From: Candidatus Dojkabacteria bacterium UBA2022
Lineage (GTDB): Bacteria > Patescibacteriota > Dojkabacteria > SC72
Length of the DNA stretch: 64,000 nt
Direction: 5' to 3'
Assembly (NCBI GenBank): GCA_002335495.1
Contig: DDBW01000002.1
Coordinates: forward strand, 9,249-73,248
A program made the translations under genes and the position numbers. Positions 16,198 through 59,137 of this stretch are shown piece by piece; positions within the stretch are counted from its first letter, which is position 1, and each line of letters opens with the position of its first letter. Under the pieces are notes generated by a model. The model had not been told where the DNA came from and searched no databases. It saw only the letters and a program-made list of their open reading frames with translations.

Positions 16198-16610
16198 TGG
16201 TGGAGACGGTGGGAATCGAACCCACGTCCAAAAGCATCACATAAGACCGTTATACAAGCTTATTCCATCTTCTTTTACCAAGAATACCTGTAAGATGAAA
16301 AGAAAAGTATCCCTGACCAATATATATTCTCATCACTAAACCATACTGGGAAGTATTAGTGACATACCCTAATAACGACCGACTACCAAACCTGATTAGG
16401 GACAAATCGGGTAATCGTTAGTCTAATTAAAGACTAAACTTAGCCTAAGTAAGAGAGATTAAGTGAAGCACTAAGTCTTGCACCTACCTCTTGAACCTTA
16501 CCTAAGAAAGCGTTAACTGTATTTTTTGCAGTTATATTTTGTTGTTTTAAGAGCTACAACTCTGCTTGCGGTACATACGCTCTGACCTCTGTCGAAAGCC
16601 TTACGTCCCC
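16198..16610 (-). ncRNA. ssrA: tmRNA (ssrA)
   Basis: On the minus strand the 5' end reads 'GGGGACGUAAGGCUUUCGACAGAGG'. The 3' end reads 'GACGUGGGUUCGAUUCCCACCGUCUCCACCA', giving a T-arm plus a 7-bp acceptor stem (GGGGACG/CGUCUCC with one G-U pair) and an encoded CCA. The roughly 410-nt body has an internal ORF ending 'UAA GUU UAG'. The tag reading frame is not resolved. Confidence 0.7.
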
Positions 16611-36074: not shown

Positions 36075-37407
36075 TACTAAACTTGTTGAAGCTATAGGGA
36101 GGCTACTGCCTCTCTCCCTTGCTGCAACAGTTTTCATTGCCAATATTTTCTTTATTGAGGAAAATCCTTTAAGAGGTATTACTATTCTGTTCTTACTGTT
36201 CATCTGGGGAATATTTACATATGTAACAAAATCTTATGTAAAAGCCTCGTTATATTTACTCCTATTTGTAATTCCTCTTAATATCACAATTACTTTTCCA
36301 ACCTTAGGTGATGTATACGTTCGGGGAGTGTATTCTAACTTTCTCTCTCCCACTCTCTCAATTATAGATATCTTTGTGGCTTTATTATTTACAAGCTTGG
36401 TAACAGTATCATTCCCAAAAAAGTCTAATTTGATTTATATGGTTGTTGTTGGGGCTCTGCTTTTAAGTTTACTCTCACACTTTTCGATTATATCCTTGAT
36501 CGGTATCGGAAGAATTATTCTATATCTTCTAACTACGAAGCTTATGTTTTATTATATGAAGAATGAGAAAGAGAAGTTAAGCATGAGGCTCGTTATATAT
36601 GTAATAAGTATAACTGTCCTTATACAGGTAATTATTGCTTTCTTTCAAGTTTATTTAGGTAGGGATTTAGGATTACAGTTCTTGGGAGAATCCCAGTTAA
36701 CTGTCGGAACAATTGGTTCAAGTTTTGTCTCTCTTTCTGAAGTTACCTATCTTCGTGGATACGGTACTTTCCCCCACCCTAATATTCTAGCCGGGTACCT
36801 TTCCTTAGTTGTCATTATCCTTTTGGGTATACGTTATAAAGGAAAGTTGGTTTGGGCTACGATAGGGATATCTGCTATTGGGCTTTTGCTAACTTTCTCT
36901 CGTTTAGGGTGGCTACTTCTTCTGCTTGTAATGGTGTTCTACCTATTATTTGGAAGCAGGCAACAGAAAGGGTTAAATTCATTCACCCTTGGAATTTTTG
37001 GAGAGAGAATTTCCAATCTTTTTCTAAACATAGATACCAGTTTTAGAGATAGAATATTGCTAAATGAGCATGCCATTGAGGTTATACAGAAAAACTGGTT
37101 AACAGGATTAGGGATTGGTAGGTATGTGTCCGCTATGAAAGAGCTTCCTATTTATACCAATAGTGGATTGTTGTTGCTGCAACCTGTGCATAATATCTTT
37201 CTCCTCTTGGTTGCCGAAATGGGAATTGGGGGAATTATATTCGCCATTGGGATTATATATAAAATACTGTTTTATAATTTTACAAAACATTCGAAATTTT
37301 TATATCTCTCGATTATCTTTTTTGTTTTGATATTTGGAATGTTTGATCACTTTCTTCTCACTCTTCCCCAGGGTTTAATCCTTCTTGCTTTTGCTCTTCT
37401 ACTTTAA
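36052..37407 (+). CDS. O-antigen ligase/polymerase-like (Wzy_C) polytopic membrane protein
   Basis: 451 aa with about 11 TM helices. The loop before 'FSRLGWLLLLLVMVFYL' resembles the Wzy_C signature region. Tentative. Confidence 0.45.
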   Translation: MKKILKNNTKLVEAIGRLLPLSLAATVFIANIFFIEENPLRGITILFLLFIWGIFTYVTKSYVKASLYLLLFVIPLNITITFPTLGDVYVRGVYSNFLSPTLSIIDIFVALLFTSLVTVSFPKKSNLIYMVVVGALLLSLLSHFSIISLIGIGRIILYLLTTKLMFYYMKNEKEKLSMRLVIYVISITVLIQVIIAFFQVYLGRDLGLQFLGESQLTVGTIGSSFVSLSEVTYLRGYGTFPHPNILAGYLSLVVIILLGIRYKGKLVWATIGISAIGLLLTFSRLGWLLLLLVMVFYLLFGSRQQKGLNSFTLGIFGERISNLFLNIDTSFRDRILLNEHAIEVIQKNWLTGLGIGRYVSAMKELPIYTNSGLLLLQPVHNIFLLLVAEMGIGGIIFAIGIIYKILFYNFTKHSKFLYLSIIFFVLIFGMFDHFLLTLPQGLILLAFALLL

Positions 37408-38094
37408 GACCTCTATTACTTCCTTTATATTACGGACGGTGATTGTTCCTTCGGGAAGATCTCCTGATGTATATACACTCCATCCTTTTGTTTTTTGTAA
37501 CCATATAAGCTTTCTTACCCCTACTTCATATCCCGCTTTTATATCCCCACTTACATTATCCCCTACGATAGCAACTTTTTCTGGATGGGTATCCAATGCC
37601 TTGATGGCTTTTAGCCAATCCTCTTTACTCTTATGGCGGTTCATATCTGCAATTTCAATGTGATCGAAGTATTGTCTAAGGTTGTGAGTACTTAATTTCA
37701 GATGAGTCCAGTCTTCAACTGCATGGGTTACTAGTCCGAGTTTGTATCCATCCTTTTTAAAGTGTTCTAGTACCTCTATGCTTCCTTCTAATAGTTTCGG
37801 AGGGGTTGTATATACTTTATACATTCGGTCAATAATTTTAACGGCAAGGTCGTTGGGTATATCAAAGTGGTCTCGCATATTTTGGATTGTAGTTGGCCAC
37901 TCCTTCACAGGGTTAATGCTTACTTCGTGATATGCCTTTACGAGAGATTCTTCAAATACTTTAGATATTTCCTCGTATGGAATATTTAGGAAGTCTGAAA
38001 GGGTCTTCTTCACTTCGGATGTTGCTTCCGTAAACACGGGATGTGTATCTATGAGGGTATCATCAAAATCGAAAAGTATCGTTTTAGGTTGCAT
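37399..38094 (-). CDS. HAD-superfamily hydrolase
   Basis: The ORF extends to 38187 and would overlap the tRNA. The internal start at 38094 gives 'MQPKTILFDFDDTLIDT' (motif I) and 'VAIVGDNVSGDI' (motif IV). Confidence 0.7.
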   Translation of the reverse strand: MQPKTILFDFDDTLIDTHPVFTEATSEVKKTLSDFLNIPYEEISKVFEESLVKAYHEVSINPVKEWPTTIQNMRDHFDIPNDLAVKIIDRMYKVYTTPPKLLEGSIEVLEHFKKDGYKLGLVTHAVEDWTHLKLSTHNLRQYFDHIEIADMNRHKSKEDWLKAIKALDTHPEKVAIVGDNVSGDIKAGYEVGVRKLIWLQKTKGWSVYTSGDLPEGTITVRNIKEVIEVLK

Positions 38095-38111
38095 ATTACT
38101 TTTGATAGAAA

Positions 38112-38201
38112 TGGCGGAGAGACAGGGATTCGAACCCTGGGTACAGTTTCCTGTACGAACGCCTTCCAAGCGTTTCCTTTCGACCACTCAGGCATCTCTC
38201 C
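38112..38201 (-). tRNA. tRNA-Ser (anticodon GGA), type II
   Basis: Minus strand: GGAGAGA acceptor, anticodon stem AACGC/GCGUU with loop UU-GGA-AG, long extra arm, T-arm CAGGG-UUCGAAU-CCCUG, discriminator G, encoded CCA. Confidence 0.7.
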
Positions 38202-38598
38202 TTAAAATCTTCTGTATTATACACTTAAAACCCTCTGATTTAATAGGGAGAGATAATATTTCATTAAGGTGTACCCATTGTGGGATCCATTCCTCTACCA
38301 TTACTTCAGCGTCTTTAAGAGTAGGTTCCATTCTGTCTCTCCTACCCTCTTCTAGCCTACAAATATAATATAGTTCTACTCTTCTATGTTGTATATCGAA
38401 ATGGATATGTTTTAACTTTGATGCTCTTACCTTTACACCAGTCTCCTCATAGGCTTCACGTTCTGCTCCCTTTGAAAATAGCTCTGGAAAATCCCAGTGT
38501 CCGCCAGGAAGAATATACTTAGTCTCATTCTTCCACGTCTTTTTTATCGATAGTACATGGTCGTTATCAATAACTACCGCTTTCACTGATATATACAT
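38188..38598 (-). CDS. NUDIX hydrolase
   Basis: Nudix box 'LPGGHWDFPELFSKGAEREAYEETGV'. The 3' end overlaps the tRNA-Ser 5' end by about 14 nt. Confidence 0.65.
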   Translation of the reverse strand: MYISVKAVVIDNDHVLSIKKTWKNETKYILPGGHWDFPELFSKGAEREAYEETGVKVRASKLKHIHFDIQHRRVELYYICRLEEGRRDRMEPTLKDAEVMVEEWIPQWVHLNEILSLPIKSEGFKCIIQKILRRDA

Positions 38599-38623: not shown

Positions 38624-40645
38624 TTAGTTGGAAATCTCTTTAATGGTTACTATTATTCTCCCCTGTCTATCTGGGAAGTATCTTAACCATTCTGGGAAAT
38701 ACGCTGGAACAAAAGAGGTCTCAGTTTTTTTATCAGTATACTTCATCTTCTGTGCTCTTTTTACTCCATCTTCCCAATCTCTACCCGCAAGCTCCTTGAT
38801 GATCTCGTTCTTGCTTATCTCTGGTTTTACTTCTCCCTTGGCTACTACTTTAATTTTTATCTTATCTCCCTTGGCTTCTTCTACAGTTATTTCTCTTTCA
38901 ATGCTATTATCAAGCACCAATTTTACATTCTTATCCTCGGTTTCAAATAGGTCTTGATCTTGTGCTGACTTGGTTAACACTTCATCCATTTTTGTTTCTA
39001 ATTCGCCCTTCTTGAAATACATTGCACTCCCTTTCACCTCAATAGTCACATTAGCAATATCAGCTTCTGCTCCTACAGGGATGTCAGATTTGGTATTGCC
39101 TTCGACATCGGCTTTAAGAGTGCTCTCTATTATCTCCCATCCGTTATCAGTTCTACTTCTTAGATCATTTTTAACCTCGTCTATAGCTCCCGTCTTTATC
39201 TCCTTAACTAACTTATCTACATCAGCTTGAGATAGTACTGTATACTGTTCCTTCGATCCCCCGGCGAATGCTGATGGGTTATCTGCATTCAACTCCGTTA
39301 CTGAATTGTACCCTGCAATCGTGAAGAAATTTCCTGCGGCTATATTATATTCTTCCCCTACTTGGGTGGCTCTTACCGCGACGTTTTCTTCCCAGATATC
39401 TCCCCCTGTAGCCCCTACTGTTACGGTACTTACAATTTCGTACGTCAAATTTTCCTTTGACGTTACAACTGTTCCTGCAGGAATTGTAACGGGGAGTTTG
39501 GTAATTATATCTGGCCATGCTTTTATTGTGATTACTCCTTCTGCCTTATTACCTCTAAAGGCTTTTCCTGAAGCAGTTACCGACCCGCTGACGCTTTTAG
39601 TCCCCTCTTCTTTTTTTACTGGGACAATTCCATTCTCGTAGTTGAATTCATTTGCTTTTAGATCTCCGTTGAATACTTTTTCAACCGCAACCTCCTTACT
39701 GGTTATATACACGGTAACCTTTGCGAGAGGAGCTAATTCATATACCAACCATAATGCAACTACTAATACCGCTACTAAAGGTGCGATTATTCTAATTGCC
39801 CACTTTTTAGCTGGGGCAGAGGATATTTTTGCGCCAATATTCTTAACTATTTTTTGGAGTGGTGACATGGTAGTTGGTACATTCGCTACTCTGACTGGTA
39901 CTGGCTGCCCAAAGTCTGATTCCTCTTCTTGTTTATCCAGTGTAGAATCCACCTCGTCTGGAAGACTCTTTAAAAAGGCGATGTCTTTTCCTATTAGTGA
40001 TGGTCTTTTTTCATTCTTTGACTTCTTAAAAGCCTCTTTATTGTTATCAATGATATCCTGGTCCAATGCTAATTGTAGTCCACCCTCTTCCACTACTTTA
40101 GCCTCTTTTCTCTCAATGTTGAGTCTTGATCTTTCGAGCGCCTCTTCTATCTTTTTCTGGAACTCAGATTTCTCTTTGGCAGGTTCTTCTGCCACAACCA
40201 GTTCGTCGTCCTCGACCTCCATTTCTATCTCAGTTCTCTCAAGTTCATCTTCTCTTGGTACATATTTTACATTGCTCTTTTGCAACATATCTTGTTTCCC
40301 TTTTGTTCTTCTTCTTAGCCCTTTCTCTGCTTCATTCCAGTATTCCTCTAGGATAGTTCCTGTTGCTTCTGTTACAGTCATGCCTGCCTCTTTTGCATTT
40401 CTGACCCCAACGGGATTTTGTACTATCTGTGCAATTATTGCTTTATTATTCTCGTCTGCAGTATCAAGAAGCACTTTAAGGTTAATGGGACTTATGAGAA
40501 TATCAGTTGGTTCAGTAAAAGTGAGGATTATTTTATCAGCATCGGATAGGGCAATTTTATTTACCACATCAATTAAATCATCCTCTTTATCGATGACAAA
40601 TTTCTCTATTTCGCTTTTGATCTGTTTTATATTTTCGTCTTTCAT
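38624..40645 (-). CDS. bitopic acidic membrane protein (673 aa), hypothetical
   Basis: N-terminal cytoplasmic domain of about 120 aa, an E/K-rich coiled coil, one TM ('WAIRIIAPLVAVLVVALWLVYEL'), and an extracytoplasmic region of about 350 aa. Its start overlaps the stop of the upstream actin-like gene (shared nucleotide 40645). Confidence 0.5.
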   Translation of the reverse strand: MKDENIKQIKSEIEKFVIDKEDDLIDVVNKIALSDADKIILTFTEPTDILISPINLKVLLDTADENNKAIIAQIVQNPVGVRNAKEAGMTVTEATGTILEEYWNEAEKGLRRRTKGKQDMLQKSNVKYVPREDELERTEIEMEVEDDELVVAEEPAKEKSEFQKKIEEALERSRLNIERKEAKVVEEGGLQLALDQDIIDNNKEAFKKSKNEKRPSLIGKDIAFLKSLPDEVDSTLDKQEEESDFGQPVPVRVANVPTTMSPLQKIVKNIGAKISSAPAKKWAIRIIAPLVAVLVVALWLVYELAPLAKVTVYITSKEVAVEKVFNGDLKANEFNYENGIVPVKKEEGTKSVSGSVTASGKAFRGNKAEGVITIKAWPDIITKLPVTIPAGTVVTSKENLTYEIVSTVTVGATGGDIWEENVAVRATQVGEEYNIAAGNFFTIAGYNSVTELNADNPSAFAGGSKEQYTVLSQADVDKLVKEIKTGAIDEVKNDLRSRTDNGWEIIESTLKADVEGNTKSDIPVGAEADIANVTIEVKGSAMYFKKGELETKMDEVLTKSAQDQDLFETEDKNVKLVLDNSIEREITVEEAKGDKIKIKVVAKGEVKPEISKNEIIKELAGRDWEDGVKRAQKMKYTDKKTETSFVPAYFPEWLRYFPDRQGRIIVTIKEISN

Positions 40646-41892
40646 TAGCTACTATATTTACCTGAATTAGCAATTTTATCAAGGGCAAACAAAGTTAAGG
40701 AGGCGGGAGTGATATCGTATGTGTGGTTTAAGTCTCCACTTTCGTCAATAATATTGTCTAGTTTATCTGGATGTATAATCTCAATCTTAGGTACCGATGC
40801 GAATGGAAGAAGTTTGGTCCAAGGGAATTCCATCATTACTTCCTTAATTTCAGGTAGCAATGCACCTCCCCCGCAGAGGTATATTTTACTAGGTAGTGAT
40901 TCCAGCTCATCGGCAACCTCAAGGGATGATTTAAGGGCTTTCATCCAAACCTGAGATGTAGGATACATAACCTTTTTAACCTGTTTACCGAGCTTATCGT
41001 CAAGCTCGCCTTCTGCATATTTAACCTTCCTCAGTTCTGCATGTCTGTAATCAAGGTTAAGAGCTTTTGCTAATTGTTTTGTGAATACTCGCCCTCCGAA
41101 GGCGTACATCTGGGTATCCACTACACTCCCTCTTTGAACTACAGCCACATCTGATGTCCCTCCTCCAATATCAACAAATATTCCGGAGAAATCCTTAGAG
41201 CGGGCTCCTCTGAATGCTCTGGCTACAGCAAACGGTTGGGATACTATTCCTAGAAGGTTTAAGGAGAGAGATTTTGCTACATTCTGTAGTGCACTTGTAT
41301 ATGTTTTAGGTGCAAACGATGCGTAGAAGTATAGTTTTACATCCTTGCCTCTAAATCCTACTAGTGAATCTACACTCATTCCCCCTATCTCCATTCCAGT
41401 TATTGTTACATGAAGAATATCGATATCTTCATTTACCAACCCAGTTCTTCTTGCAAGATCTTCTTTGCCTGATTCCAGTATTTTGTTGTGTATTCTCGAG
41501 ATAATATCAGCTTGCTCTTTAGTGGTTACTTCTTCGTTAAATTTCTCTTCTCTCTCGTAGTTAACGATTATTGATACTCCTTGTATATATTCACCTGCTA
41601 TTCCCATCACAATATGCTTTGGGAGTTTAACCTCTTCCAGCCCATCTGAAATTTCGCGCATAGCTAACCTACAATTCTCAAGAACTGTATTAAGGTTCAT
41701 AATCATTCCCTTATCCATTGCATTTTGCTGCTGTTGGATACGCGCAACTTTTTCAACAACAATTTTGCCTTCCTCGTTAATATTAAAAAGGATTGCTTTA
41801 AGTACTTCTGTCCCAATATCAAGGGCAACTACTCGCTCGTCCTTTTCAACTTTCTTCTCAGATTTTTTTATGAGGTTTGGCAGTTTAATCAT
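40645..41892 (-). CDS. actin-like ATPase of the FtsA/PilM family
   Basis: Phosphate-1 'VVALDIGTEVLKA', phosphate-2 'GIFVDIGGGTSDVAVV' and adenosine 'LCGGGALLPEIK' motifs. The 415-aa length fits FtsA, but no ftsZ follows. Confidence 0.65.
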   Translation of the reverse strand: MIKLPNLIKKSEKKVEKDERVVALDIGTEVLKAILFNINEEGKIVVEKVARIQQQQNAMDKGMIMNLNTVLENCRLAMREISDGLEEVKLPKHIVMGIAGEYIQGVSIIVNYEREEKFNEEVTTKEQADIISRIHNKILESGKEDLARRTGLVNEDIDILHVTITGMEIGGMSVDSLVGFRGKDVKLYFYASFAPKTYTSALQNVAKSLSLNLLGIVSQPFAVARAFRGARSKDFSGIFVDIGGGTSDVAVVQRGSVVDTQMYAFGGRVFTKQLAKALNLDYRHAELRKVKYAEGELDDKLGKQVKKVMYPTSQVWMKALKSSLEVADELESLPSKIYLCGGGALLPEIKEVMMEFPWTKLLPFASVPKIEIIHPDKLDNIIDESGDLNHTYDITPASLTLFALDKIANSGKYSS

Positions 41893-41906
41893 ACTGTTTC
41901 AGTATA

Positions 41907-43493
41907 TCATTTTTTTATTGAAACTTTCTCTGTCGCATAGTGATTCTTTTTGACTCCCTTCCCTACCATCATCTCTGTTTGAGCTTGTACGTATGGTATG
42001 AAAGCAAACGTTAGCATATTGACTGTTACTACAAAGGTTTCCAGCATATCGAGGAACTTTCTAAAGATACTCCACTCATGAGGTGTTGGGGATATTTTGG
42101 TACGGATTATATATATAGGTATGTTTAGGAACATTACCGAGGTTAGTATTGCACTCATAATTCTCGGAAGGTTGTATGAGGCTGAGCTGTATTTAAACTC
42201 TGGACTTATTATAGTCAATATTGGGATTCCTAGTGTCAGTAGGTACACAACTGTTTTTAGAATCATCCTATCGTCAAACATCGTTAGGATTATTCTAAGC
42301 TTTCTCAAAAATGGAATTCTGTTGTTTTTATACAATCCTGCAAAAGTCATAGGGAATACTATTCCTCCCCACCCCCATCTTAACTGCTGTTTATACAGTG
42401 ATTTATGGGTTTTTATAAAGGTCGCGTTTTCCACGGCATCGTTATATGTAGGGATGTATACTTCTTCTCCTCCAAAGTCCCCGTCGAATCTGATTAAGGC
42501 GTTGTAGTAGAAGGCGGTGTCGTCGTTTGGAATCTGAGGATCCCAGTAGCCAACGTCATCTACGGTTTTGAGATTTACAACATATGACGACCAGGTCTCG
42601 TTTATCTTCTTTGCAAATACCCATTGGTGCATGACTGCTAAAGTCAAGAAGCTAGAGAATGTTCTTATTAATGTAGGGACCCTATATAGGTTGTTGTTGA
42701 AATTATGAACGGCGGTTGCGTAGAACTTTCTAAGTCTATTCGGATTATTCAGGTATTTATATGTTATGGATGACATATATTTAGGGTGAGGGCGCAAATC
42801 GCTGTCACATGTAATCAATAGGTATTCTTCAAGCTTCTCTCCTCTGCTTTTTACTAGCTCACTGAAGTGTCTGCCCGACCAATTAATGTTGGGATTTTTT
42901 ACACCAACCACCTCCCCCTCTATATCCTGGGGGTGTATATATTTGATCATCTCCCTAAATACTCCCTTATATTTCCTTTCCAAATGCTCAATATTATCTT
43001 TGATACTTTCGTAGAATCTCTCTTCTAGAGCAAACACTAGAGATATCTTATCTGCACCAATATCTTGAGCCGCCCATGCATCAAGAGATGGTTCTAATAC
43101 ATCTAGACCTTCTGATGTAACCGGGAAGAGAAATGCATACTTAACCTCTTTGCGTGGAAGATTTTCCTGATCCATTTTTGCAACCCAGTCTATTGAAGTT
43201 TCTTTAATATATCTTCGATATGCAATGATTATTGCTGTTACGAATTTGAAACCTTTCAGCGCCCAATATACCGTTAAAAATGCAATATATCCCACTAAAA
43301 TTTCTGGATACCCAAGAAACCCTACGGCAAACGGTAGTAATAGGAAGAACCAGGTTATTACTCCTGGAATGGCCTCAAATACCTTGGTGTACCATCGCGG
43401 TACTCCTATTGGATACCCATTTTCACGGTCAATGGGTCTTAGGTGTTGAGGTTTAATAACCGCTACCTTTGTTCCCTTATCCATACTAAACAA
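41907..43493 (-). CDS. processive family-2 glycosyltransferase (cellulose/chitin/hyaluronan-synthase-like)
   Basis: 'LITCDSDL' (D,D), 'NDDTAF', and the 'QQLRWGWGG' QxxRW motif. N-terminal and C-terminal TM helices. Confidence 0.6.
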   Translation of the reverse strand: MFSMDKGTKVAVIKPQHLRPIDRENGYPIGVPRWYTKVFEAIPGVITWFFLLLPFAVGFLGYPEILVGYIAFLTVYWALKGFKFVTAIIIAYRRYIKETSIDWVAKMDQENLPRKEVKYAFLFPVTSEGLDVLEPSLDAWAAQDIGADKISLVFALEERFYESIKDNIEHLERKYKGVFREMIKYIHPQDIEGEVVGVKNPNINWSGRHFSELVKSRGEKLEEYLLITCDSDLRPHPKYMSSITYKYLNNPNRLRKFYATAVHNFNNNLYRVPTLIRTFSSFLTLAVMHQWVFAKKINETWSSYVVNLKTVDDVGYWDPQIPNDDTAFYYNALIRFDGDFGGEEVYIPTYNDAVENATFIKTHKSLYKQQLRWGWGGIVFPMTFAGLYKNNRIPFLRKLRIILTMFDDRMILKTVVYLLTLGIPILTIISPEFKYSSASYNLPRIMSAILTSVMFLNIPIYIIRTKISPTPHEWSIFRKFLDMLETFVVTVNMLTFAFIPYVQAQTEMMVGKGVKKNHYATEKVSIKK

Positions 43494-45159
43494 TAACGGG
43501 TAATATTATTGGCTCACGTTCCGTTAGCTTGTAAATATATTTTCGAGTTCTTCTCTCTATCTCTGCTATTAAATCGTCCTCGCTCGCTTTTCGCTTCTTC
43601 CATTTATCCATCCATTCTCTATGTGTATCCATACAGATAGTTTCAATCTCTTTAAGAAGTTTCTGTGAGGTTTTCATGTATACAAATCCTCTTGATACAA
43701 ATCGTGGTCGTGACATAAATCTCTTATCTCTCTGGTTTAGGTTCATCACTATAATGAACATCCCATATTCAGCAAGTTGAGCTCTGTCTTTTAGAACAAT
43801 ATCTCCTGTATCCCCCACTCCGAGTCCATCTATTAGGATTGGTTTGGATTCTACTTTAACCCCTCTTCGCACTTCCCCTTTACTGATAACCCAAGTTTGT
43901 CCATCTTCTGTAAGCATTACCTTGTTAGGATCATGTCCCCATTTTACATAATTCTTTTTACCCTGATACCTATATGTTAAGGATCCGTGGACTGGCATAA
44001 TGTACTTAGGTTGGATCATGTCATTAAGGATTTTCATATCTTCTTTTAATCCATGCCCACTGGAATGTACGCTTGCTTCAGAGTTGTTGATCAGTTCTAT
44101 TCCTTGGGTTATTAATCCGTCTGTCATTTTTTCAATTTTCTCTCCGTTTCCTGGAACTTCTGAGGCCGACATAATTACCAAATCCCCCGGTTTTGCTTTG
44201 AGATACTTATGTTCACGCATTGCTAGCCTGTTTAGAGCTGCATATCTTTCTCCCTGGCTCCCTGTTGAAAGAATTAAAATTTTATCGTCAGGATATTTCC
44301 CAATACTAAATTCAGGAACAAATATATCATCAGGAACATCTATATATTTATATTGTCTTGCGACCCTTATTGTTGTGTGTAAGCTTCTTCCTGAAAGGAC
44401 GACTTTTCTTCCTGTCTCCTGTGCAATCTTTATGACAGAAGCGAGTCTAGTTACTAGAGATGCAAAGGCGGCAACAATAACTCTTCCTTTATGGTTTTTA
44501 ATGATATCTCTAGTTGTCTGTACCGCAATTGATTCTGCAAGAGCTCTACCTTCTCTATATACATTGGTACTGTCGTATAGGGCAACGTCAACTTTCCCTT
44601 TAAGGGCTTTCATTGCTTCTACATCCATTAACTCCTCATCAATTTTATAGTCTCCAGAGAAGAATATAGTACCTGCGGGGGTACTTACATATATTGAGTA
44701 TGAGTCTGGAATGCTGTGAGTGGTCGTAATATATTGGATGTTGAAGTTTGAAATTTTGAAATTGGATGTTTTATTTATTTCTACAAATTTAACTTTTTTA
44801 TCCAATCCTTTCTCTTCTAACTTCTCTTTTAGTATTGCAAGTCCAAAGGGTCCTCCATAGATGGTTGGGAAGCCTAGGTCTTCAATTATATAGGGAATTG
44901 CTCCTATGTGGTCTAAGTGGCCGTGAGTGAGGAGGATTCCTTTAATATGTTTCTTCTTTGCTTTGAGTTCCTTCATGTTTGGAATCAAATAATCGATTCC
45001 ATACATCTCTTGCCCGGGGAAAGAAAATCCCGCGTCTATAATCAGTATATCTCCTTTATATTCGATATAGTTACAGTTTCTACCTCCTGTTTCGTTCGTA
45101 CCAGAAAGGGTACAGAGAGTGAGGTTATCCTCTCTTTCTTTTCTATTAAAATACTTCAT
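43486..45159 (-). CDS. rnj: ribonuclease J (metallo-beta-lactamase/beta-CASP)
   Basis: 'ILLTHGHLDHIGAIPY' (HxHxDH) plus beta-CASP motifs and a C-terminal domain. 557 aa. Confidence 0.85.
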   Translation of the reverse strand: MKYFNRKEREDNLTLCTLSGTNETGGRNCNYIEYKGDILIIDAGFSFPGQEMYGIDYLIPNMKELKAKKKHIKGILLTHGHLDHIGAIPYIIEDLGFPTIYGGPFGLAILKEKLEEKGLDKKVKFVEINKTSNFKISNFNIQYITTTHSIPDSYSIYVSTPAGTIFFSGDYKIDEELMDVEAMKALKGKVDVALYDSTNVYREGRALAESIAVQTTRDIIKNHKGRVIVAAFASLVTRLASVIKIAQETGRKVVLSGRSLHTTIRVARQYKYIDVPDDIFVPEFSIGKYPDDKILILSTGSQGERYAALNRLAMREHKYLKAKPGDLVIMSASEVPGNGEKIEKMTDGLITQGIELINNSEASVHSSGHGLKEDMKILNDMIQPKYIMPVHGSLTYRYQGKKNYVKWGHDPNKVMLTEDGQTWVISKGEVRRGVKVESKPILIDGLGVGDTGDIVLKDRAQLAEYGMFIIVMNLNQRDKRFMSRPRFVSRGFVYMKTSQKLLKEIETICMDTHREWMDKWKKRKASEDDLIAEIERRTRKYIYKLTEREPIILPVIV

Positions 45160-52541: not shown

Positions 52542-53108
52542 ATGCCAGCGAAAATTAAACGAAGAACAATAAACCTCTTAGAACCTATTGGTGCCCCTGC
52601 CGACACTTGGAGTGCGATATATGCATGGGTGTTCAATGTTGGTAGATATCTTATGTTGGCAATTGAAATCATCGTTTTGGTTGTATTCTTCTCCCGATTT
52701 GTATTGGATCGACAGAATCATGATCTCACCGAGGAGATCAATGATAAGGCTTTTCTATTGTCTAACCAAAATTTCAGACTTGAAGAGGTTCGATATAAGA
52801 ACACACACTTAGTTTTAAACGATATATATCGATTATCGAATGGGCAGCCTCTAAACTCTGAAGATATAGCTTTACTTCTCAGCTCAGTACCAAGTGGTCT
52901 GACTCTTGATAAGTTTGCATACAATAATGGAAGAGTTTCGCTTACTGTTGTAGGAAGCGACATCTCAACAATTAGAGATTATGAATTCTCACTAAGACAG
53001 AATACCAACTATGAAAATGTTACATTTACAGTATCAAGGTCTGGGGTCAGTAAAGCCGATTATGATGTTGTGATTTCTCTAACGGTTAAGTTACAGGAGG
53101 ATAAATAA
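52542..53108 (+). CDS. pilN: type IV pilus assembly protein PilN-like
   Basis: N-terminal 'RRTINLLEP' (the conserved INLLP PilM-binding motif), one TM, and a periplasmic domain. 188 aa. Confidence 0.55.
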   Translation: MPAKIKRRTINLLEPIGAPADTWSAIYAWVFNVGRYLMLAIEIIVLVVFFSRFVLDRQNHDLTEEINDKAFLLSNQNFRLEEVRYKNTHLVLNDIYRLSNGQPLNSEDIALLLSSVPSGLTLDKFAYNNGRVSLTVVGSDISTIRDYEFSLRQNTNYENVTFTVSRSGVSKADYDVVISLTVKLQEDK

Positions 53109-53707
53109 TGGCAGAGTCAAAAGGAGTTGGATATCTAAAAATTATAAACGGTTCGGTTCAAAATAAAACATATAGTTTTGCTGTCTTTACCGTTATTGTT
53201 GTAATTGTTCTCCTTGTAGGAGCTATTCGCCCTACCCTTCTAACTATTACGAAGATTAACAAGGATATAGAGGAAAAAACTTTGATTAATGAACAATTGG
53301 ATTCTAAGCTTGATAATCTTGCGAGATTGAATAGTCAGTACAGTGAACGAAACGAGGATATTGAAGTGCTTCCACTTATGTTCCCAACTCAAGGTAACTT
53401 TAGTCTTTTTATGTCTAATATTGAAACCATAGCAAAATCAAATGGATATACCTTAAATTCTATAACTTTTGGTAGTCCGAATGATCTTGATTATAAATAT
53501 ACAGTTCTCAAACCATGGATTGCTCGTATTACAGTCACAGGTAACCGATCAAATATCGTAAAGCTACTAAGTGCATATGAGAGTATGCCTATGTATCCGA
53601 TTGTAAATAAGCTCTCATTTGCTAGAAACGCTTCTGCAGGGGGACTTGCTCAATTTAGTGTCGACCTTGTTATCTTTAGAATAGATGATCCTAACTTTTA
53701 TAACTAA
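53108..53707 (+). CDS. pilO: type IV pilus assembly protein PilO-like
   Basis: TM, then a coiled coil ('KDIEEKTLINEQLDSKLDNLARLNSQYSE') and a C-terminal domain. Translationally coupled to the pilN-like gene (ATGA overlap). Confidence 0.45.
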   Translation: MAESKGVGYLKIINGSVQNKTYSFAVFTVIVVIVLLVGAIRPTLLTITKINKDIEEKTLINEQLDSKLDNLARLNSQYSERNEDIEVLPLMFPTQGNFSLFMSNIETIAKSNGYTLNSITFGSPNDLDYKYTVLKPWIARITVTGNRSNIVKLLSAYESMPMYPIVNKLSFARNASAGGLAQFSVDLVIFRIDDPNFYN

Positions 53708-55437: not shown

Positions 55438-58400
55438 TTATTTCCTATTCCACACGAGTTTAAAATTATTATCAGACTTCTCCTTTATTTGAGTTAGAAG
55501 TTGGTTGAGAACATTATCCATGCCTGAAGGATCAATAACTGCCCATGTATCAGGGTAAGTTATGTTTACAGACAGAGTATCCTCTGAACCGGTTCCGGGT
55601 TGTTTGAAAGTTGATAACACAAATTCAATATCCTGGTTGCTTACAGAGAGAGGTTTGTAAGTGCTTTCAGGAGTTAGGCTATACTTAATTTCTAGCGTCT
55701 TTGATGTTTGTATTGGGACATTTAACCATCCACCAACCACTTTATAGCCATTTTCCAGATAGATCTGGTAATCAGTATCTGTAAATCCTTTAATAGATTT
55801 TATCTGTGCACTTTCAGGAAGGTATGCTCTTACATAGTTAGTATAATCTCCTAATGGGTATACTTTGCTTGTTGCAGAGTTTCTTAGTACCAGCTGGTAG
55901 GTATAATCAACCTTGTCTATATCTAAAATGTCTATATTAAGGGTTTTACTCCTCTCAACTTTCGTATTCACTTTATTCGCTCCCCAGTTCCATTCAATTG
56001 TAAGAGGGGCTGATTTATATTTTTCTCCTAAAGTTCCTGCCCATCCGTTCTGTTCTAAGTAATCGTATGCTTCTAAGTTTTTAAGATATACATTTATATG
56101 TTTTGAGTTCAAAGAATCAATCATAGCTGTTCCAATCTTTGGATAATCCTCTACCTTGGCAGATAGCACACGCTGCAAAAGAGTGTTAGCTAAGTTGGCT
56201 AGGAAAGGTGCTTTCAAACTTTCGCCGGGGGTAAACTGTTTATGTAAATTGGTAATTCTTTCGTCAAGATTATCTGCCGTCACTGGCTGAGTTTCCCCAG
56301 GGATAATAACTTCATCCCAAACGGTTAAGAGGGCTTTTAATACTTCAGTGTCTATCGCAATTGTTCCATCGAGTTCGGTCCCTGGGTCTACTTTATCCAT
56401 AAGGGATTCATTTATCGCAGTTACATTCTGTAAATCAGGCTCCCAGTTTGAAAGTGAGAAGGTGAAGTTTTCAACCTCAAGCGCCTTGCGCATTGATTGA
56501 GGAGGTAACACTTTTATGTCGTTATTAATTAGGCGACCGTCTAGGTTGTAGATGTCGTCAACTTTTAATTCTCTAATCTGGCCTCCTTCAAAGGAGATCA
56601 ACGCGTAGCTTGATAGCCAGCCTCCTGTGCTGCGCAATTCGGCAGGGTTTTGCAGGAGTATAAGGTATCTAACTCGCTTTTCGTTTCCAAGGACATCAGG
56701 CAGGAATGTTATTACTTTTTCAACTGGGTCTATCTGGGATTTAAGCTGGTCGTTATATTCTTTTAGTACAATGATGTAATTCTGTACCGGAGTTGGGAAT
56801 ACAGACACTTTTACATTCTCGATCAAGTCTGAGGCAATATTTACATTGTATACTCCTTTTTGCAGCAGGGAACGGTTCTGTTTGAGCTGGGTTAGATATT
56901 CCCGGTACTCGCGACTGGAAGAAGGTAAGTCTGTTTGAAAGTTTAATGCCGGCTCAAAATTCTGCACATATAATGAAAGTGGTTCTATGGCTGTCATAAT
57001 ATCTCTCGCTCCTTGAATGCCATATTGGCTTGCAAATACGAGTTGAGTGAAATTGTCGTATGTCTCTTCTGTCCCAGTTGCCTGGAAGGCCCATTTAAGT
57101 TGTCCCAACGACGAACTTATCTTAGTTAGATAGTTCTCAGATTTTACCAACTGAGAGTTGGCATCATCTAACTTGAACTCTAGGGCATAATCTTTTGCTT
57201 TATCCAGAGACTTGTAAGTAAGGTATCCCCCTAAACCTAACGAGAAGAGTGGGTAGAGAAGGAATATAAATAGAAGGGTTGTTAGAACTACGCCGATGCT
57301 TAGATATCCTATCTTTAATGGGGTGAGACTTGATTTGAATTTTTGTACTTTATTAGATCCGCTTCGACTGATTCTTTTAAATGGACGGGCTATTGTATCA
57401 AGTAGCTCTCCAAGTGGAGTTTTTACATTTTTTACTTTTACTACTACTTCCTCTTCAACTTTTTTAGGTTCTTCCCTTTTTCTTTTTATAATCTGGCCTG
57501 TCTTTGGATATAACTTGTTGATAGTGTCAACAATTGTTTGTTCAAGAGTTACGGTTTGTTTCCATCCAAAATTGGATGCGTTAGGAGCTGGAATGTAGTG
57601 CTCATAACTTATATACTTCGAATCGGTCTTTGTGGGGCCGAATTTAATATCAGATATGTCGTCGTTAATTTCTAATAACTTGTATGCAAGAGATAGCGTT
57701 GTGTAATCATTTTGGTTGGTTAGGGATATAACCTCTCCCTCCGTTTTATTTTGAAAGGTTAACTTCAAAATCCCGTAAATTGCATCCTCAATGTTTATTA
57801 GGTAGTGCAACTGAAGGCCTTCTCCATATATAGTTATAAACCCTTTATTTGAGCTGTCATTTAGAAGGTCTTCTATAATTGGATCTGTTATCTCTGCTAT
57901 CTCACTTCCAAGGAGGGTTCCTAGTCTAATTATTCTGGCGTTCATCTTTGATTTATCACGATATTCGGCGGTTAGAGTTTCGCAGTATTTTTGAAGCTCG
58001 ATTGCAGAATATGGGGCTGGAGCAGAAAGATTTGAATTTAAAATGTGTGCTGAGAGCTTCTCGTTAAGTTTGATTGAAGTTACGAGAGCTACTTTAGAGT
58101 CGTTCTTCTGTGCAACTTTCAGGGTTTGATTTAGGTAGTTTGATTCTTCCAAGAAGTCTTTGCTTGAAAAAGTATCGTGTTCTAAAAGTTTTTCTGATAG
58201 TAGATAGTAGATATAGTCAATTCTTCCCAAGGTTTTATAGAGAGCTTCAATTCCCGTGAAATCTATAAAATCGGCATTGCCAATTTTCTTAAGTTCACTA
58301 ACAAAACCCTTAGATCGGCTGTTGAAGTTATCTACTATTATGACTTGTCCTCCTTGCTCTAAAAGGGTTTTTGCTAGCTTAAAGCCAAGGGGGTTACCAC

Positions 58401-58473
58401 CGTGGACGACTACTGATACTGTCGTACTAACTTTTATTTCAGAATATTTACTCGCCATTACTTTGTTCTTCAA
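55438..58473 (-). CDS. fusion protein: N-terminal NAD(P)-binding epimerase/dehydratase-like domain + TM + large DUF4012-like extracytoplasmic domain (1011 aa)
   Basis: N-terminal Rossmann 'VVVHGGNPLGFKLAKTLLEQGGQVIIVDNF'. TM 'IGYLSIGVVLTTLLFIFLLYPLF'. The C-terminal region has 'RYLILLQNPAELRSTGGWLSSYALISFEGG', which resembles the DUF4012 core. Confidence 0.7.
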   Translation of the reverse strand: MKNKVMASKYSEIKVSTTVSVVVHGGNPLGFKLAKTLLEQGGQVIIVDNFNSRSKGFVSELKKIGNADFIDFTGIEALYKTLGRIDYIYYLLSEKLLEHDTFSSKDFLEESNYLNQTLKVAQKNDSKVALVTSIKLNEKLSAHILNSNLSAPAPYSAIELQKYCETLTAEYRDKSKMNARIIRLGTLLGSEIAEITDPIIEDLLNDSSNKGFITIYGEGLQLHYLINIEDAIYGILKLTFQNKTEGEVISLTNQNDYTTLSLAYKLLEINDDISDIKFGPTKTDSKYISYEHYIPAPNASNFGWKQTVTLEQTIVDTINKLYPKTGQIIKRKREEPKKVEEEVVVKVKNVKTPLGELLDTIARPFKRISRSGSNKVQKFKSSLTPLKIGYLSIGVVLTTLLFIFLLYPLFSLGLGGYLTYKSLDKAKDYALEFKLDDANSQLVKSENYLTKISSSLGQLKWAFQATGTEETYDNFTQLVFASQYGIQGARDIMTAIEPLSLYVQNFEPALNFQTDLPSSSREYREYLTQLKQNRSLLQKGVYNVNIASDLIENVKVSVFPTPVQNYIIVLKEYNDQLKSQIDPVEKVITFLPDVLGNEKRVRYLILLQNPAELRSTGGWLSSYALISFEGGQIRELKVDDIYNLDGRLINNDIKVLPPQSMRKALEVENFTFSLSNWEPDLQNVTAINESLMDKVDPGTELDGTIAIDTEVLKALLTVWDEVIIPGETQPVTADNLDERITNLHKQFTPGESLKAPFLANLANTLLQRVLSAKVEDYPKIGTAMIDSLNSKHINVYLKNLEAYDYLEQNGWAGTLGEKYKSAPLTIEWNWGANKVNTKVERSKTLNIDILDIDKVDYTYQLVLRNSATSKVYPLGDYTNYVRAYLPESAQIKSIKGFTDTDYQIYLENGYKVVGGWLNVPIQTSKTLEIKYSLTPESTYKPLSVSNQDIEFVLSTFKQPGTGSEDTLSVNITYPDTWAVIDPSGMDNVLNQLLTQIKEKSDNNFKLVWNRK

Positions 58474-59095
58474 TATTTATAGGAATAGGAAAGAGATTTA
58501 CCTTTACATTCAAATTGTATCCCTCTCTTACAATAACAGGAAATTCTACATTTTCGTACCCCGTTTTACTCACCTTCACGCTATACGACTTTGGGTTGGC
58601 CATGTAGGCGTTTATAGGGGCCTTGTCAGCATACTCTCCATCAATATAGACAGTTGCGTCAGCGGGATCTGTATTAACGCTAAGATATCCCTTTCCGTTC
58701 GATACAGGAGATTTCGTATAGTATAGTATGTAACCAGATGATAAATTGTTTGGTCCAATCTCAAGGTCAATAACTGCTTCTGTATTTCTCTCGAGATCAA
58801 TATCAATGTATCTATCTTCATATGCTCCCGAAACATCGGTTATTCTGGTTAGTTTGAAGGTGTATCTTCCAGGTTTTAAATCTGAAATTGTAACAGGAGT
58901 TTCTCCATAGCTTTTAGAGTCAAGAAAAACTTCTGACTTTGCATTTCTGCTAGTAATCGTAATTGTTGTGTTGTTGTAGAATTCACTGATGTATGGAAGA
59001 CGGGCTAGGATATCATCAAAGGGTATAAAAAATACTCCTATGGAGATAACAAATACCGCTAATATGATAATTATGGCAGTTTTAAGATTTGGCAT
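58448..59095 (-). CDS. membrane-anchored PEGA-domain protein
   Basis: N-terminal TM, then two PEGA-like beta-sandwich repeats ('LKPGRYTFKLTR...', 'ANPKSYSVKVSKTGYENVEFPVIVREGYNLNVKVNL'). Confidence 0.55.
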   Translation of the reverse strand: MPNLKTAIIIILAVFVISIGVFFIPFDDILARLPYISEFYNNTTITITSRNAKSEVFLDSKSYGETPVTISDLKPGRYTFKLTRITDVSGAYEDRYIDIDLERNTEAVIDLEIGPNNLSSGYILYYTKSPVSNGKGYLSVNTDPADATVYIDGEYADKAPINAYMANPKSYSVKVSKTGYENVEFPVIVREGYNLNVKVNLFPIPINIEEQSNGE

Positions 59096-59137
59096 AATTT
59101 GATTATATGCTACGGAATAGACCTTGTCTAGCTTGAT

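Follow-up and report, generated by a model that had tools for sequence, protein, structure and literature searches.

An FtsA/PilM-like actin-like ATPase and a membrane protein with a baseplate-wedge-like ectodomain form a conserved gene pair in Patescibacteria

Introduction

In the alignment subcomplex of type IV pili, PilM is paired with PilN, and GspL of type II secretion is the fused counterpart of the two. A pair, SEML1_0656/SEML1_0655, is found in the Saccharibacterium Southlakia epibionticum and has the same architecture as the one that we describe here (Wang et al. 2023, PMC10633639, Tables S1 and S2). SEML1_0656 is labelled 'PilM' with the KO K03590, while SEML1_0655 is labelled 'baseplate J/gp47', with SpoIIaa-like, beta-barrel and gp6 domain III domains, and the two genes lie between alaS and ruvX-mltG (PMC10633639). 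Both are flagged as core and Patescibacteria-enriched (PMC10633639), families that come from Meheust et al. 2019 (PMC6744442). By Tn-seq, SEML1_0655 was scored NE/ES/ES (normalised reads 373, 34, 24) and SEML1_0656 NE/NE/GD (normalised reads 2427, 660, 221), and the FtsA and FtsZ of the same organism GD, ES, ES at T0, T1, T2 (PMC10633639). The pair was catalogued and scored there without discussion or functional assignment in the text. S. epibionticum also has a canonical FtsA-FtsZ pair (SEML1_0174/0175) and a PilM with PilN-like genes (SEML1_0104-0106), and the canonical Saccharibacterial FtsA has an SHS2_FTSA Pfam match (PMC10633639). Every pilus locus of Saccharibacteria comes with a pilM of its own, adjoining pilN and pilO (PMC12206443, PMC10633639), and CPR pilus components have been reported to co-localise (PMC6744442).

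Here we compare with these systems a gene pair from a Candidatus Dojkabacteria genome, contained in a 64,000-nucleotide stretch of DNA (the window). Our best explanation, to which we give a probability of roughly 0.55, is that the pair forms a conserved two-gene module of Patescibacteria, consisting of a third FtsA/PilM paralogue and a STAS-TM-wedge partner, that acts in the manner of PilM-PilN/GspL with an output in the cell envelope.

Results

The features of the locus are collected in Table 1. The open reading frames of the ATPase and of the 673-aa protein were confirmed where the original prediction had placed them, sharing nucleotide 40645. The junction reads ...AGC TAA TG AAA..., so that the A at 40645 closes the ATPase stop codon and opens the partner's ATG. 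The overlap in relatives is 1 or 4 nt, and the distance from the ATPase stop to the partner's first aligned codon has a median of 12 nt (82 loci). Gene order, sizes, annotations and domain calls agree with those of SEML1_0656/0655, and in the window as across lineages an FtsA/PilM-like gene stands directly upstream of one for a STAS-TM-wedge-like protein. We infer from published annotation, length, domain calls and gene position that the two pairs are orthologous.

Table 1. Coordinates of the features in the window.
Feature	Position	Strand	Description
FtsA/PilM-fold actin-like ATPase, 415 aa	40645..41892	-	Candidatus Dojkabacteria (CPR) genome
673-aa bitopic membrane protein	38624..40645	-	STAS-like domain, charged linker, one TM helix, baseplate-wedge-like ectodomain
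One-base stop/start overlap TAATG of the two genes	40645..40647	-	
Cytoplasmic N-terminal alpha/beta domain, residues 13-95 (predicted)	40361..40609	-	STAS/SpoIIAA-like fold
Charged linker, residues ~111-262	39860..40315	-	variable length, mostly low-confidence
Single TM helix, residues ~279-304	39734..39811	-	preceded by basic residues AKKWAIR
Extracytoplasmic beta-rich ectodomain, residues 305-673 (predicted)	38627..39733	-	gpJ/gp47/gp6-class baseplate wedge relative
Ectodomain core detectable by sequence, beta-barrel, residues 367-466	39248..39547	-	
Divergent GT2-like multi-TM glycosyltransferase, 528 aa	41907..43493	-	lineage-specific neighbour, outside conserved module

An absence of ftsZ, also part of the original prediction, held up. 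The tubulin signature GGG[TS]G[STA]G is missing from the window and from 84 further Dojkabacteria loci (L001-L084), and tblastn with an E. coli FtsZ query gave no match in either. No ftsZ is annotated in the two 10-kb stretches that flank the window (read from a second assembly's contig with the same genes) or in five distant loci (L085-L089). The visible locus of this genome comes to ~84 kb, made up of the window and its two 10-kb flanks, on contigs of 211-341 kb; neither a canonical ftsA-ftsZ pair nor pilM was located within it.

The ATPase has the FtsA/PilM fold, as had been predicted, with Pfam matches to FtsA (PF14450, matched once, 6e-13) and PilM_2 (6.5e-11). Its nucleotide-binding motifs are intact (D25-I-G-T-E29, D241-x-G-G-G-T246-x-D248 and C340-G-G-G343, invariant in 34 homologues) and indicate that it should be able to bind ATP. 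It also carries a conserved N-terminal peptide, M-x-x-L-P-F-L, and a family-specific motif, E-F-P-W-T-K-L-L-P-F. The structure is an actin fold in which a 1C (SHS2) subdomain replaces 1B, as in FtsA. Neither the model nor the sequence contains a TM segment or an evident C-terminal membrane-targeting helix: the last helix (residues 391-408) is modeled with a pLDDT of ~86-92, the protein stops seven residues later, and its tail is polar (SGKYSS) and lacks a hydrophobic segment.

The best full-length HMM match of the ATPase is NCBIfam ftsA TIGR01174, at 85.6 bits over profile positions 2-256 of 371, below the curated equivalog cut-off of 175.85 bits. The pilM model TIGR01175 gives 31.3 bits vs. 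a cut-off of 133, and Pfam PilM_2, at 42.2 bits (above its cut-off of 27), is matched only at model positions 184-295 of 340. There is no SHS2_FTSA (PF02491) Pfam match. Sequence matches in the PDB (PilM, FtsA, EutJ) are weak and about equal; relatives are named FtsA/K03590 by JGI and KEGG-type annotation, and several are named 'PilM' by NCBI. Most likely, the ATPase belongs to a third Patescibacteria-enriched paralogue family beside FtsA and PilM.

The 673-aa protein is acidic (121 D/E vs. 96 K/R, net charge ~-25), with an N-terminal domain, one TM helix and an outer domain of ~370 aa, a layout foreseen by the original prediction and borne out by a hydropathy scan and an AF2 model. The Kyte-Doolittle scan finds one hydrophobic stretch, at 279-312, and AF2 puts a helix at 277-304. 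This stretch directly follows three K/R residues, and there is no signal peptide, which by the positive-inside rule implies an N-in/C-out topology. Both the N-terminal domain (~100-125 aa) and the ectodomain are well-predicted folds. The former, the best-conserved region of the protein, is a four-stranded beta-sheet with flanking helices in STAS topology. Its S52 does not vary among 31 close and 14 distant sequences. It caps the N-terminal end of the second helix, after strand 38-43, and may be the equivalent of the SpoIIAA phospho-serine, the conserved Ser/Thr on which a partner kinase acts in that family; no conserved kinase was seen near the partner gene in the loci compared. The region that follows had been called an E/K-rich coiled coil. 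It is 43% charged (37 D/E and 28 K/R in 152 residues), varies in length and sequence between homologues, and has a pLDDT that is mostly under 50, so that it is, as modeled, better called a charged, largely disordered linker with a few helices.

The ectodomain has the fold of the baseplate wedge proteins. Pfam gives nothing for the window protein itself, even at E<=1, whereas PF04865 is matched by 5 of 14 diverse relatives, some relatives are annotated as 'baseplate J/gp47 family', and PHROG_6 matches the window protein at E 1.4e-7, across only ~100 of 548 model positions.

The expected co-occurrence of the 673-aa protein with an FtsA-like gene was found in relatives. Of 84 Dojkabacteria loci, 82 have the ATPase gene immediately before that of the partner, and two are truncated by contig ends; the order is the same in five distant lineages (L085-L089), where the ATPases are 34-54% identical, the partner gene again follows immediately and the other neighbours differ. 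The partner family is large, with 7772 clusters (50% identity) at E<=1e-3 and 1048 at E<=1e-30, and nearly all of the best 150 matches span most of the profile. Housekeeping genes make up most of the recurrent neighbours (RNase J, a ClpX-like AAA protein, YidC/KhpB, alaS, ruvX, GroES/EL), and the position of the pair near the replication origin is stable across the class. Since the whole origin-proximal region is syntenic in Dojkabacteria, linkage there is weak evidence by itself, and the case rests on the distant loci and on the fusion described below. One of the distant loci, L089, has the order alaS(-), ATPase, partner, ruvX, yceG/mltG, mreB, mreC, a 153-aa ORF and pbp2, the same position after alaS and before ruvX-mltG as that of SEML1_0656/0655. 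On a contig of 68.6% GC (L090) the partner is present with no adjacent ATPase, and it can therefore exist, or be encoded, apart from it.

In one sub-family the two proteins are fused. Four proteins (P0319, P0321, P0324, P0330) have, in place of the STAS domain, ~250 aa homologous to the ATPase family (hhalign probability 97.5%, E 8e-12), so that a copy of the ATPase core now precedes the TM helix and ectodomain found in the unfused partner. This copy retains the family-specific W-x-K-x-L-P-F...P-x-I motif and an M-K-L-P N-terminus, and it is degenerate, having lost DIGGGT. The fusion gene fills the slot right after alaS in L094; a sortase gene follows the fused variant in both L091 and L094, and in L091 a class A PBP follows the sortase. 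The fusion is Rosetta-stone evidence for the pairing. Because adjacency is kept amid differing surroundings and the two are fused in one sub-family, we take the ATPase and its partner to be a functional unit.

Could the ATPase be the organism's working FtsA, or an FtsA2, that tethers FtsZ? The 673-aa protein would then be a divisome partner and a membrane anchor replacing the amphipathic helix. The ftsA HMM match, the FtsA/K03590 names of relatives and the missing C-terminal targeting helix would fit, as would FtsK and a RodZ-like gene ~2-5 kb past the right edge of the window. However, the ftsA score is less than half of the curated cut-off, the ATPase lacks the SHS2_FTSA match of the canonical Saccharibacterial protein, and in ~90 loci it never adjoins ftsZ or dcw genes. 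A canonical ftsA-ftsZ pair elsewhere, which the original prediction had named as part of the evidence against itself, is present in the relative S. epibionticum, the one Patescibacterium studied genetically, where FtsA-FtsZ is essential and the ATPase of the pair is scored only 'growth defect', at the last passage (PMC10633639). With such a pair present besides, and an ftsA score so far below the cut-off, the suggested divergent divisome sub-complex is disfavored, and we consider this role unlikely.

The ATPase had alternatively been proposed as the missing PilM for an orphan PilN/PilO-like pair at 52.5-53.7 kb. The PilN-like protein (gene at 52542) starts M-P-A-K-I-K-R-R-T-I-N-L-L-E-P, and we take its I-N-L-L-E-P, an I-N-L-L-x-P-type N-terminus, to resemble the PilM-binding I-N-L-L-P peptide. 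No pilM adjoins pilN in the window or in the ~55 Dojkabacteria loci holding pilN, and the 'PilM' names given by NCBI point the same way. Against this, the pilM score is far below its cut-off, Pfam PilM_2 covers one third of its model, and in L085-L089 the ATPase stays with the baseplate-like partner where no pilN/pilO is nearby. In the window, ~10.7 kb and two tRNA synthetase genes separate the ATPase from pilN/pilO, which lie on the opposite strand. Saccharibacterial pilus loci bring their own pilM (PMC12206443, PMC10633639), S. epibionticum having a separate PilM by its PilN-like genes, and co-localisation of pilus components is what has been reported for CPR (PMC6744442). We thus disfavor this assignment and hold it to be quite improbable, while the ATPase may have a second job in Dojkabacteria with the orphan PilN-like gene.

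A third proposal was that the ATPase and partner position or regulate the adjacent GT2-like enzyme, as a module for cytoskeleton-guided polysaccharide synthesis or secretion. The claim that this enzyme is a processive GT2 synthase stood in its signature residues but not in a match to a family model or solved synthase. D144, D230-x-D232, D324/D325 and Q369-Q-x-R-W373 are invariant in eight homologues, and the hydrophobic stretches 38-75, 410-433 and 445-463 number at least three, with room for 4-5 TM helices; the protein thus has the D, DxD, D, QxxRW residues and TM helices of processive synthases of the cellulose, chitin or hyaluronan type. Pfam Glyco_trans_2_3 gives E 5e-4 and 20.3 bits vs. 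a cut-off of 27 (one homologue has a recorded PF13632 match), NCBIfam gives no match, and PDB searches, even with a profile, found no solved synthase by sequence. In the window, RNase J, GT2-like, ATPase, partner and NUDIX genes are co-directional and tightly spaced, a Wzy-like gene is also near the pair, and in distant L085 the ATPase has a GT2-like homologue (35% identity) next to it. However, of the 73 Dojkabacteria loci with both RNase J and the ATPase, only 7 have the gene between them, and in L001 three other genes intervene before the ATPase. It adjoins RNase J wherever present in Dojkabacteria. Among the six distant loci with a free or fused ATPase, only L085 has it, on the opposite strand; it is absent from L086-L089, L091 and L094. 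The GT2-like gene is an occasional, lineage-specific neighbor, and guidance of its product by the pair appears very unlikely. Of the cytoskeletal module first proposed, the unit of ATPase and 673-aa protein stands, while the GT2 link does not.

A prophage or contractile injection system remnant, with a baseplate J gene beside an unrelated neighbor, would account for the sequence and fold matches and the 'baseplate J/gp47 family' annotations, but it is effectively refuted by context: none of the loci examined has genes for a sheath, tube, spike or other wedge protein, the protein is membrane-anchored with its wedge-like part predicted outside the cell, its origin-near position is stable across the class, and it belongs to a core Patescibacteria-enriched family with a fitness effect in S. 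epibionticum (PMC10633639).

Discussion

As the S. epibionticum pair coexists with both canonical FtsA-FtsZ and PilM-PilN, the ATPase most likely serves the cell neither as FtsA nor as the PilM of its pilus. By analogy, the third FtsA/PilM paralogue and its STAS-TM-wedge partner probably work like PilM-PilN/GspL. The ATPase, having no membrane anchor of its own, would dock on the partner's cytoplasmic STAS-like end, and the complex would act like PilM-PilN/GspL, or like FtsA-FtsN or MreB-RodZ. The nucleotide or assembly state of the membrane-tethered ATPase could then be passed to the ectodomain, a scaffold related to the phage baseplate wedge that might organise something in the wall zone.

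The pair most likely serves the assembly of the cell envelope or cell surface, and most likely not FtsZ septation, the type IV pilus or guidance of the GT2 neighbor. Contexts with an envelope flavor are those of L089 (mreB/mreC/pbp2), L091 and L094 (sortase, with a class A PBP in L091) and the window (Wzy-like and GT2-like genes). As most of the recurrent neighbors are housekeeping genes, only a minority of contexts speak for the envelope role. Far from being peculiar to this locus, the pair is a conserved, still uncharacterised family across the ultrasmall Patescibacteria.

How does the pair compare with known systems? Compared with PilM-PilN and GspL, the partner does not resemble PilN: where PilN has a short N-terminal peptide, it presents a folded STAS-like domain, and its ectodomain is baseplate-wedge-like rather than having the ferredoxin-like PilN/PilO fold. 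The genes also lack adjacent pilus genes, and the ATPase falls below the curated pilM threshold. To our knowledge, the pairing of a STAS domain with an actin-like protein has no precedent. FtsA is the best match of the ATPase both in fold, including the 1C subdomain, and in full-length HMM, and with FtsN and FtsQ it is likewise an actin-like protein at the membrane with single-pass partners. The ATPase differs from FtsA in its score below the curated cut-off, in lacking an SHS2_FTSA match and an evident amphipathic C-terminal helix, in never adjoining ftsZ, and in coexisting with canonical FtsA-FtsZ in a relative. MreB-RodZ follows the same logic, with the cytoplasmic folded domain of a bitopic protein binding an actin-like protein and followed by a linker, a TM helix and a beta-rich outer domain; in L089 the pair lies just upstream of ruvX-mltG-mreB-mreC-pbp2. 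With the baseplate wedge proteins (P2 gpJ, Mu gp47, T4 gp6, Afp11 and Pvc11; Baseplate_J, PHROG_6) the ectodomain shares a barrel of ~100 aa and a wider resemblance in fold. Unlike them, the window protein is membrane-anchored with its wedge-like part predicted to be extracytoplasmic, it is encoded by a stable chromosomal core gene with no other tail or baseplate genes, and in its family the wedge-like part is joined to a cytoplasmic domain that is STAS-like or, in the fused variant, actin-like.

Gene neighborhood

The window comes from a Candidatus Dojkabacteria genome (WS6, Patescibacteria/CPR) with ~37% GC, and lies near dnaA. On the minus strand, five tightly spaced, co-directional genes encode RNase J, a GT2-like multi-TM protein, an actin-like ATPase, a 673-aa membrane protein (the partner) and a NUDIX hydrolase. 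The stop codon of the ATPase gene overlaps the start codon of the partner gene by one base, in the sequence TAATG. The arrangement given in the original prediction was thus confirmed in its open reading frames, overlap, motifs and single TM segment, as was the lack of ftsZ, with neither a tubulin signature nor a tblastn match in the window or in the 84 Dojkabacteria-type loci collected here. A promoter and terminator scan performed at chance level and gives no information on operon limits.

Several other features of the window were recorded. The longest-ORF call for a HAD hydrolase (GTG at 38187) overlaps tRNA-Ser(GGA), and its true start is probably an internal Met (MQPKTILFDFDDT...) downstream of the tRNA. 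This CPR genome encodes a heliorhodopsin (Pfam PF18761, E 2.9e-97), and the tmRNA gene specifies the tag peptide AKNTVNAFLGKVQEVGARLSASLNLSYLG. DUF2341, fibronectin-III-like and CarboxypepD_reg domains (annotation from locus L092) occur in a giant ORF of 2411 aa, which presumably encodes a cell-surface protein. A cluster of capsule-/wall-polymer type includes a 1011-aa epimerase-DUF4012 fusion, a PEGA-domain protein and a GT4 (MraY/WecA-type) transferase.

Positions of features in the window
Feature	Positions	Strand
Heliorhodopsin	3289-4056	+
Giant ORF, 2411 aa	4757-11992	-
tmRNA	16198-16610	-
dnaA	29492-30937	
HAD hydrolase	37399-38201 (including tRNA-Ser(GGA))	-
tRNA-Ser(GGA)	38112-38201	
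NUDIX hydrolase	38188-38598	-
673-aa protein (partner)	38624-40645	-
Ser52 codon of partner	40490-40492	-
Actin-like ATPase, 415 aa	40645-41892	-
GT2-like multi-TM protein, 528 aa	41907-43493	-
RNase J	43486-45159	-
PilN-like (188 aa) and PilO-like (199 aa) genes	52542-53707	+
Capsule-/wall-polymer-type cluster	55438-60385	-

The ATPase has an FtsA/PilM architecture

The motifs DIGTE, DxGGGTxD and CGGG of the ATPase are invariant in 34 homologues. Comparison with actin-like proteins gave values of 34.4 for E. coli FtsA (346 residues aligned), 33.5 for S. aureus FtsA, 32.2 for Myxococcus PilM and 31.9 for Thermus PilM, versus 21-22 for MreB, EutJ and BeeR, indicating an FtsA/PilM architecture that includes the 1C subdomain. 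Judged by sequence, the ATPase belongs to neither family. It scores 85.6 bits against NCBIfam ftsA (cut-off 175.85) and 31.3 bits against NCBIfam pilM (cut-off 133); Pfam FtsA and PilM_2 matches are confined to its second half, with no Pfam match to SHS2_FTSA, and its PDB sequence matches, to PilM, FtsA and EutJ, are uniformly weak. No TM segment was found in the ATPase, and no C-terminal amphipathic helix is evident. Its N-terminal peptide, M-x-x-L-P-F-L, is conserved, and the motif E-F-P-W-T-K-L-L-P-F is specific to the family. Identity across Dojkabacteria is 56-82% for the ATPase (median 59%, a class-wide level comparable to that of the aminoacyl-tRNA synthetases of the same loci) and 29-60% for the partner (median 35%).

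The partner joins a STAS-like domain to a baseplate-wedge-like ectodomain

The AlphaFold2 model of the partner has a pLDDT of 77, with well predicted folded domains and linker segments below 50. In it, a cytoplasmic alpha/beta domain (residues 13-95) leads into a long helix, after which come a charged linker, the TM segment and a beta-rich ectodomain (305-673). The single hydrophobic helix (~279-304) is directly preceded by basic residues, no signal peptide was found in the protein, and its net charge is ~ -25. What had been described as an E/K-rich coiled coil is better seen as a variable charged linker, mostly of low confidence in the model.

The N-terminal domain is the best-conserved region. 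Within it, all 31 close and 14 distant homologues share Ser52, which occupies the N-cap position of the helix after strand 38-43; we infer that it is the topological equivalent of the serine that is phosphorylated in STAS domains of the SpoIIAA type. The stretch S-P-I-N-L-K-V-L in the same domain was considered for its likeness to the PilN I-N-L-L-P peptide and rejected: it is a helix inside a folded domain, and the likeness is probably due to chance. In the ectodomain, a ~100-aa barrel (367-466) matches PHROG_6, 'baseplate wedge subunit' (E 1.4e-7). Among 14 diverse family members, Pfam Baseplate_J was detected in five and the GlxA barrel in seven, and neither was found in the window's own protein.

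The two genes remain paired in distant relatives

Scanning one genome per GTDB species yielded 80 loci, to which two protein look-ups added four, all of Dojkabacteria type. The ATPase gene is immediately 5' of the partner gene in 82 of the 84, with a median gap of 12 nt, and the remaining two are interrupted by a contig end. Taken alone, this linkage is weak evidence, since the whole origin-proximal region is syntenic across the class.

More distant relatives came from an exhaustive HMM search for the partner family over 1.84 billion cluster representatives. It returned 7772 clusters (50% identity) with E<=1e-3, of which 1048 have E<=1e-30; among the 150 best, nearly all align to most of the profile. 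Five distant members (L085-L089) lie on contigs with quite different neighbors. S15, PNPase, a ClpX-like AAA protein and RNase J are encoded upstream in L085 and L086; L087 and L088 have L25 and an AAA protein upstream and GroES downstream, with GroEL confirmed in L088; and the order in L089 is alaS(-), the pair, ruvX, yceG/mltG, mreB, mreC, a 153-aa ORF and pbp2. Each of the five encodes an ATPase of 405-432 aa, 34-54% identical to that of the window, directly 5' of the partner. BLAST aligned four of these partners, at 22-28% identity, and the fifth, in L089, was found by profile search only.

Two side observations concern these loci. RNase J is encoded immediately or almost immediately 5' of the pair in 73 of 82 Dojkabacteria loci and likewise in L085 and L086, and is ~7 kb away in L089. 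On a 68.6% GC contig (L090, 8001-9509), a 502-aa partner-family member with a STAS-like N-domain, proline-rich linker, TM helix and wedge-like barrel (PHROG_6, E 4.9e-19) has alaS on one side and ruvX-yceG on the other, with no adjoining ATPase gene. The family may therefore reach beyond typical low-GC CPR genomes, and its gene can be encoded without the ATPase.

A fused form was also found. Four representatives (P0319, P0321, P0324 and P0330) have no STAS domain and begin with ~250 residues homologous to the ATPase family (hhalign probability 97.5%, E 8e-12), followed by a linker, a TM helix and a wedge-like ectodomain. The ATPase-like region keeps an M-K-L-P N-terminus and W-x-K-x-L-P-F...P-x-I and has lost DIGGGT. 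In L094 the fusion directly follows alaS, the slot of the two-gene form in L089 and in the Saccharibacterium Southlakia epibionticum. By a Rosetta-stone-type argument, the fused form suggests that the actin-like and membrane proteins act as one unit. A sortase gene lies directly 3' of the fused variant in L091 (8001-10010) and L094 (8001-10394); a class A PBP comes next in L091, and alaS precedes the variant in L094.

Relation to FtsA, FtsZ, PilM and the GT2-like neighbor

The 10 kb flanking the window on each side contain FtsK, a RodZ-like gene, rpoB/C and T4SS pilins, and no annotated ftsA, ftsZ or pilM. When an HMM of the ATPase was run against ORFs of >=150 aa in ~90 loci, the only other actin-like matches were MreB (L089) and the fused variant (L091). 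On the right-hand side (L093, 5109-8298, ~2-5 kb past the end of the window), FtsK and the RodZ-like protein (HTH_25, Glucodextran_B, weak RodZ_C match) lie beside dnaG, with rpoB and rpoC next, so that the genome probably has a separate MreB-RodZ system.

Could the ATPase be the missing PilM of a type IV pilus? The window's PilN-like and PilO-like genes stand alone, with no pilM or other pilus gene adjoining them in the window or in ~55 Dojkabacteria loci, and the PilN-like protein begins with R-R-T-I-N-L-L-E-P, which we take to resemble the PilM-binding peptide. Either the pilus PilM is encoded elsewhere, or the ATPase moonlights. However, the ATPase is constantly paired with a wedge-like protein and scores low against pilM, and Saccharibacterial pilus loci each have their own pilM-pilN-pilO (PMC12206443). 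A primary role as the missing PilM is therefore not the best explanation.

The supplementary tables for S. epibionticum bear on both PilM and FtsA (Wang et al., 2023, PMC10633639). There, FtsA and FtsZ are adjacent (SEML1_0174/0175), PilM is followed by PilN-like genes (SEML1_0104-0106), and SEML1_0656 and SEML1_0655 stand apart, between alaS and ruvX-mltG. SEML1_0656 (427 aa) is annotated 'pilus assembly protein PilM' (KO K03590) and overlaps SEML1_0655, a 556-aa 'baseplate J/gp47 family protein' with structure-based SpoIIaa-like (6-105), beta-barrel, G3P-like and gp6 domain III assignments. Both are flagged as core and Patescibacteria-enriched (PMC10633639; families of Meheust et al., 2019). 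The Tn-seq calls are NE, ES, ES for SEML1_0655 (normalised reads 373, 34, 24; class II essential) and NE, NE, GD for SEML1_0656 (2427, 660, 221) (PMC10633639). We equate this pair with that of the window by architecture, annotation and position, not by alignment. As Southlakia has FtsA-FtsZ besides SEML1_0656/0655, a replacement for ftsZ does not best explain the pair either.

The original prediction also had the pair guiding the GT2 enzyme. The GT2-like protein has invariant signature residues and several TM stretches, but can at best be called a very divergent GT2: neither single-sequence nor profile searches matched it to a solved structure. Only 7 of the 73 Dojkabacteria loci with both RNase J and the ATPase have its gene between the two. 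In L001 it is separated from the ATPase by three further genes, and among the distant loci L085 alone has it, on the opposite strand. We therefore regard it as a lineage-specific neighbor outside the module, and guidance of a GT2 is not the best explanation. A prophage remnant was rejected for the partner, as no tail genes were found.

Discussion

The pair consists of an actin-like ATPase and a bitopic partner, and we put the probability that it is a distinct conserved pair at about 0.85. Of the readings considered, a third FtsA/PilM-type system has the best support. Its genes are already catalogued, in databases and published tables, within Patescibacteria-enriched core families, with no function or mechanism proposed. 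The texts of PMC10633639, PMC11665869 and PMC6744442 do not discuss the pair, and our literature search found no paper tying a baseplate-J-like protein to FtsA or PilM, or combining 'FtsA-like' or 'PilM-like' with CPR terms.

In such a third system, the partner's cytoplasmic STAS-like domain would recruit the ATPase to the membrane, and the single TM helix would link the nucleotide or assembly state of the ATPase to a wedge-like ectodomain that oligomerises in the wall zone. We consider the odds of a PilM-PilN-like coupling to be even. The output would probably be envelope or surface assembly, as suggested by mltG-mreBCD-pbp2, sortase, PBP1a and Wzy neighbors in some lineages; this is the weakest step, at less than even odds, because most of the recurrent neighbors are housekeeping genes. 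More speculatively, and unlikely as a whole, the pair could be the core of a so far unrecognised transmembrane machine characteristic of Patescibacteria. In it, an FtsA/PilM-like protein that is driven by ATP and possibly forms filaments would control a baseplate-wedge-like surface scaffold via a STAS-like switch, perhaps through Ser52, and the ring- or lattice-forming scaffold would build or anchor an envelope structure for growth, budding division or host attachment. Were this true, a phage baseplate fold would have been domesticated for a cellular, extracytoplasmic role and coupled to the bacterial cytoskeleton.

Patescibacteria account for a very large part of all bacterial diversity, and for most of the core genes specific to their lineages no role is known. 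The pair occurs widely, is strongly conserved and lends itself to experiment, and what appears to be the same pair matters for fitness in Southlakia, the only Patescibacterium with Tn-seq data. A third FtsA/PilM-type system would offer a testable handle on envelope and surface organisation in Patescibacteria. The ATPase gene should not be counted as 'FtsA' or 'PilM' in metabolic or cell-biology reconstructions of CPR genomes. Among trans-membrane couplings of actin-like proteins, a STAS domain with a wedge-like ectodomain would be a new type of partner, and its two-gene and fused forms parallel PilM with PilN on the one hand and GspL on the other.
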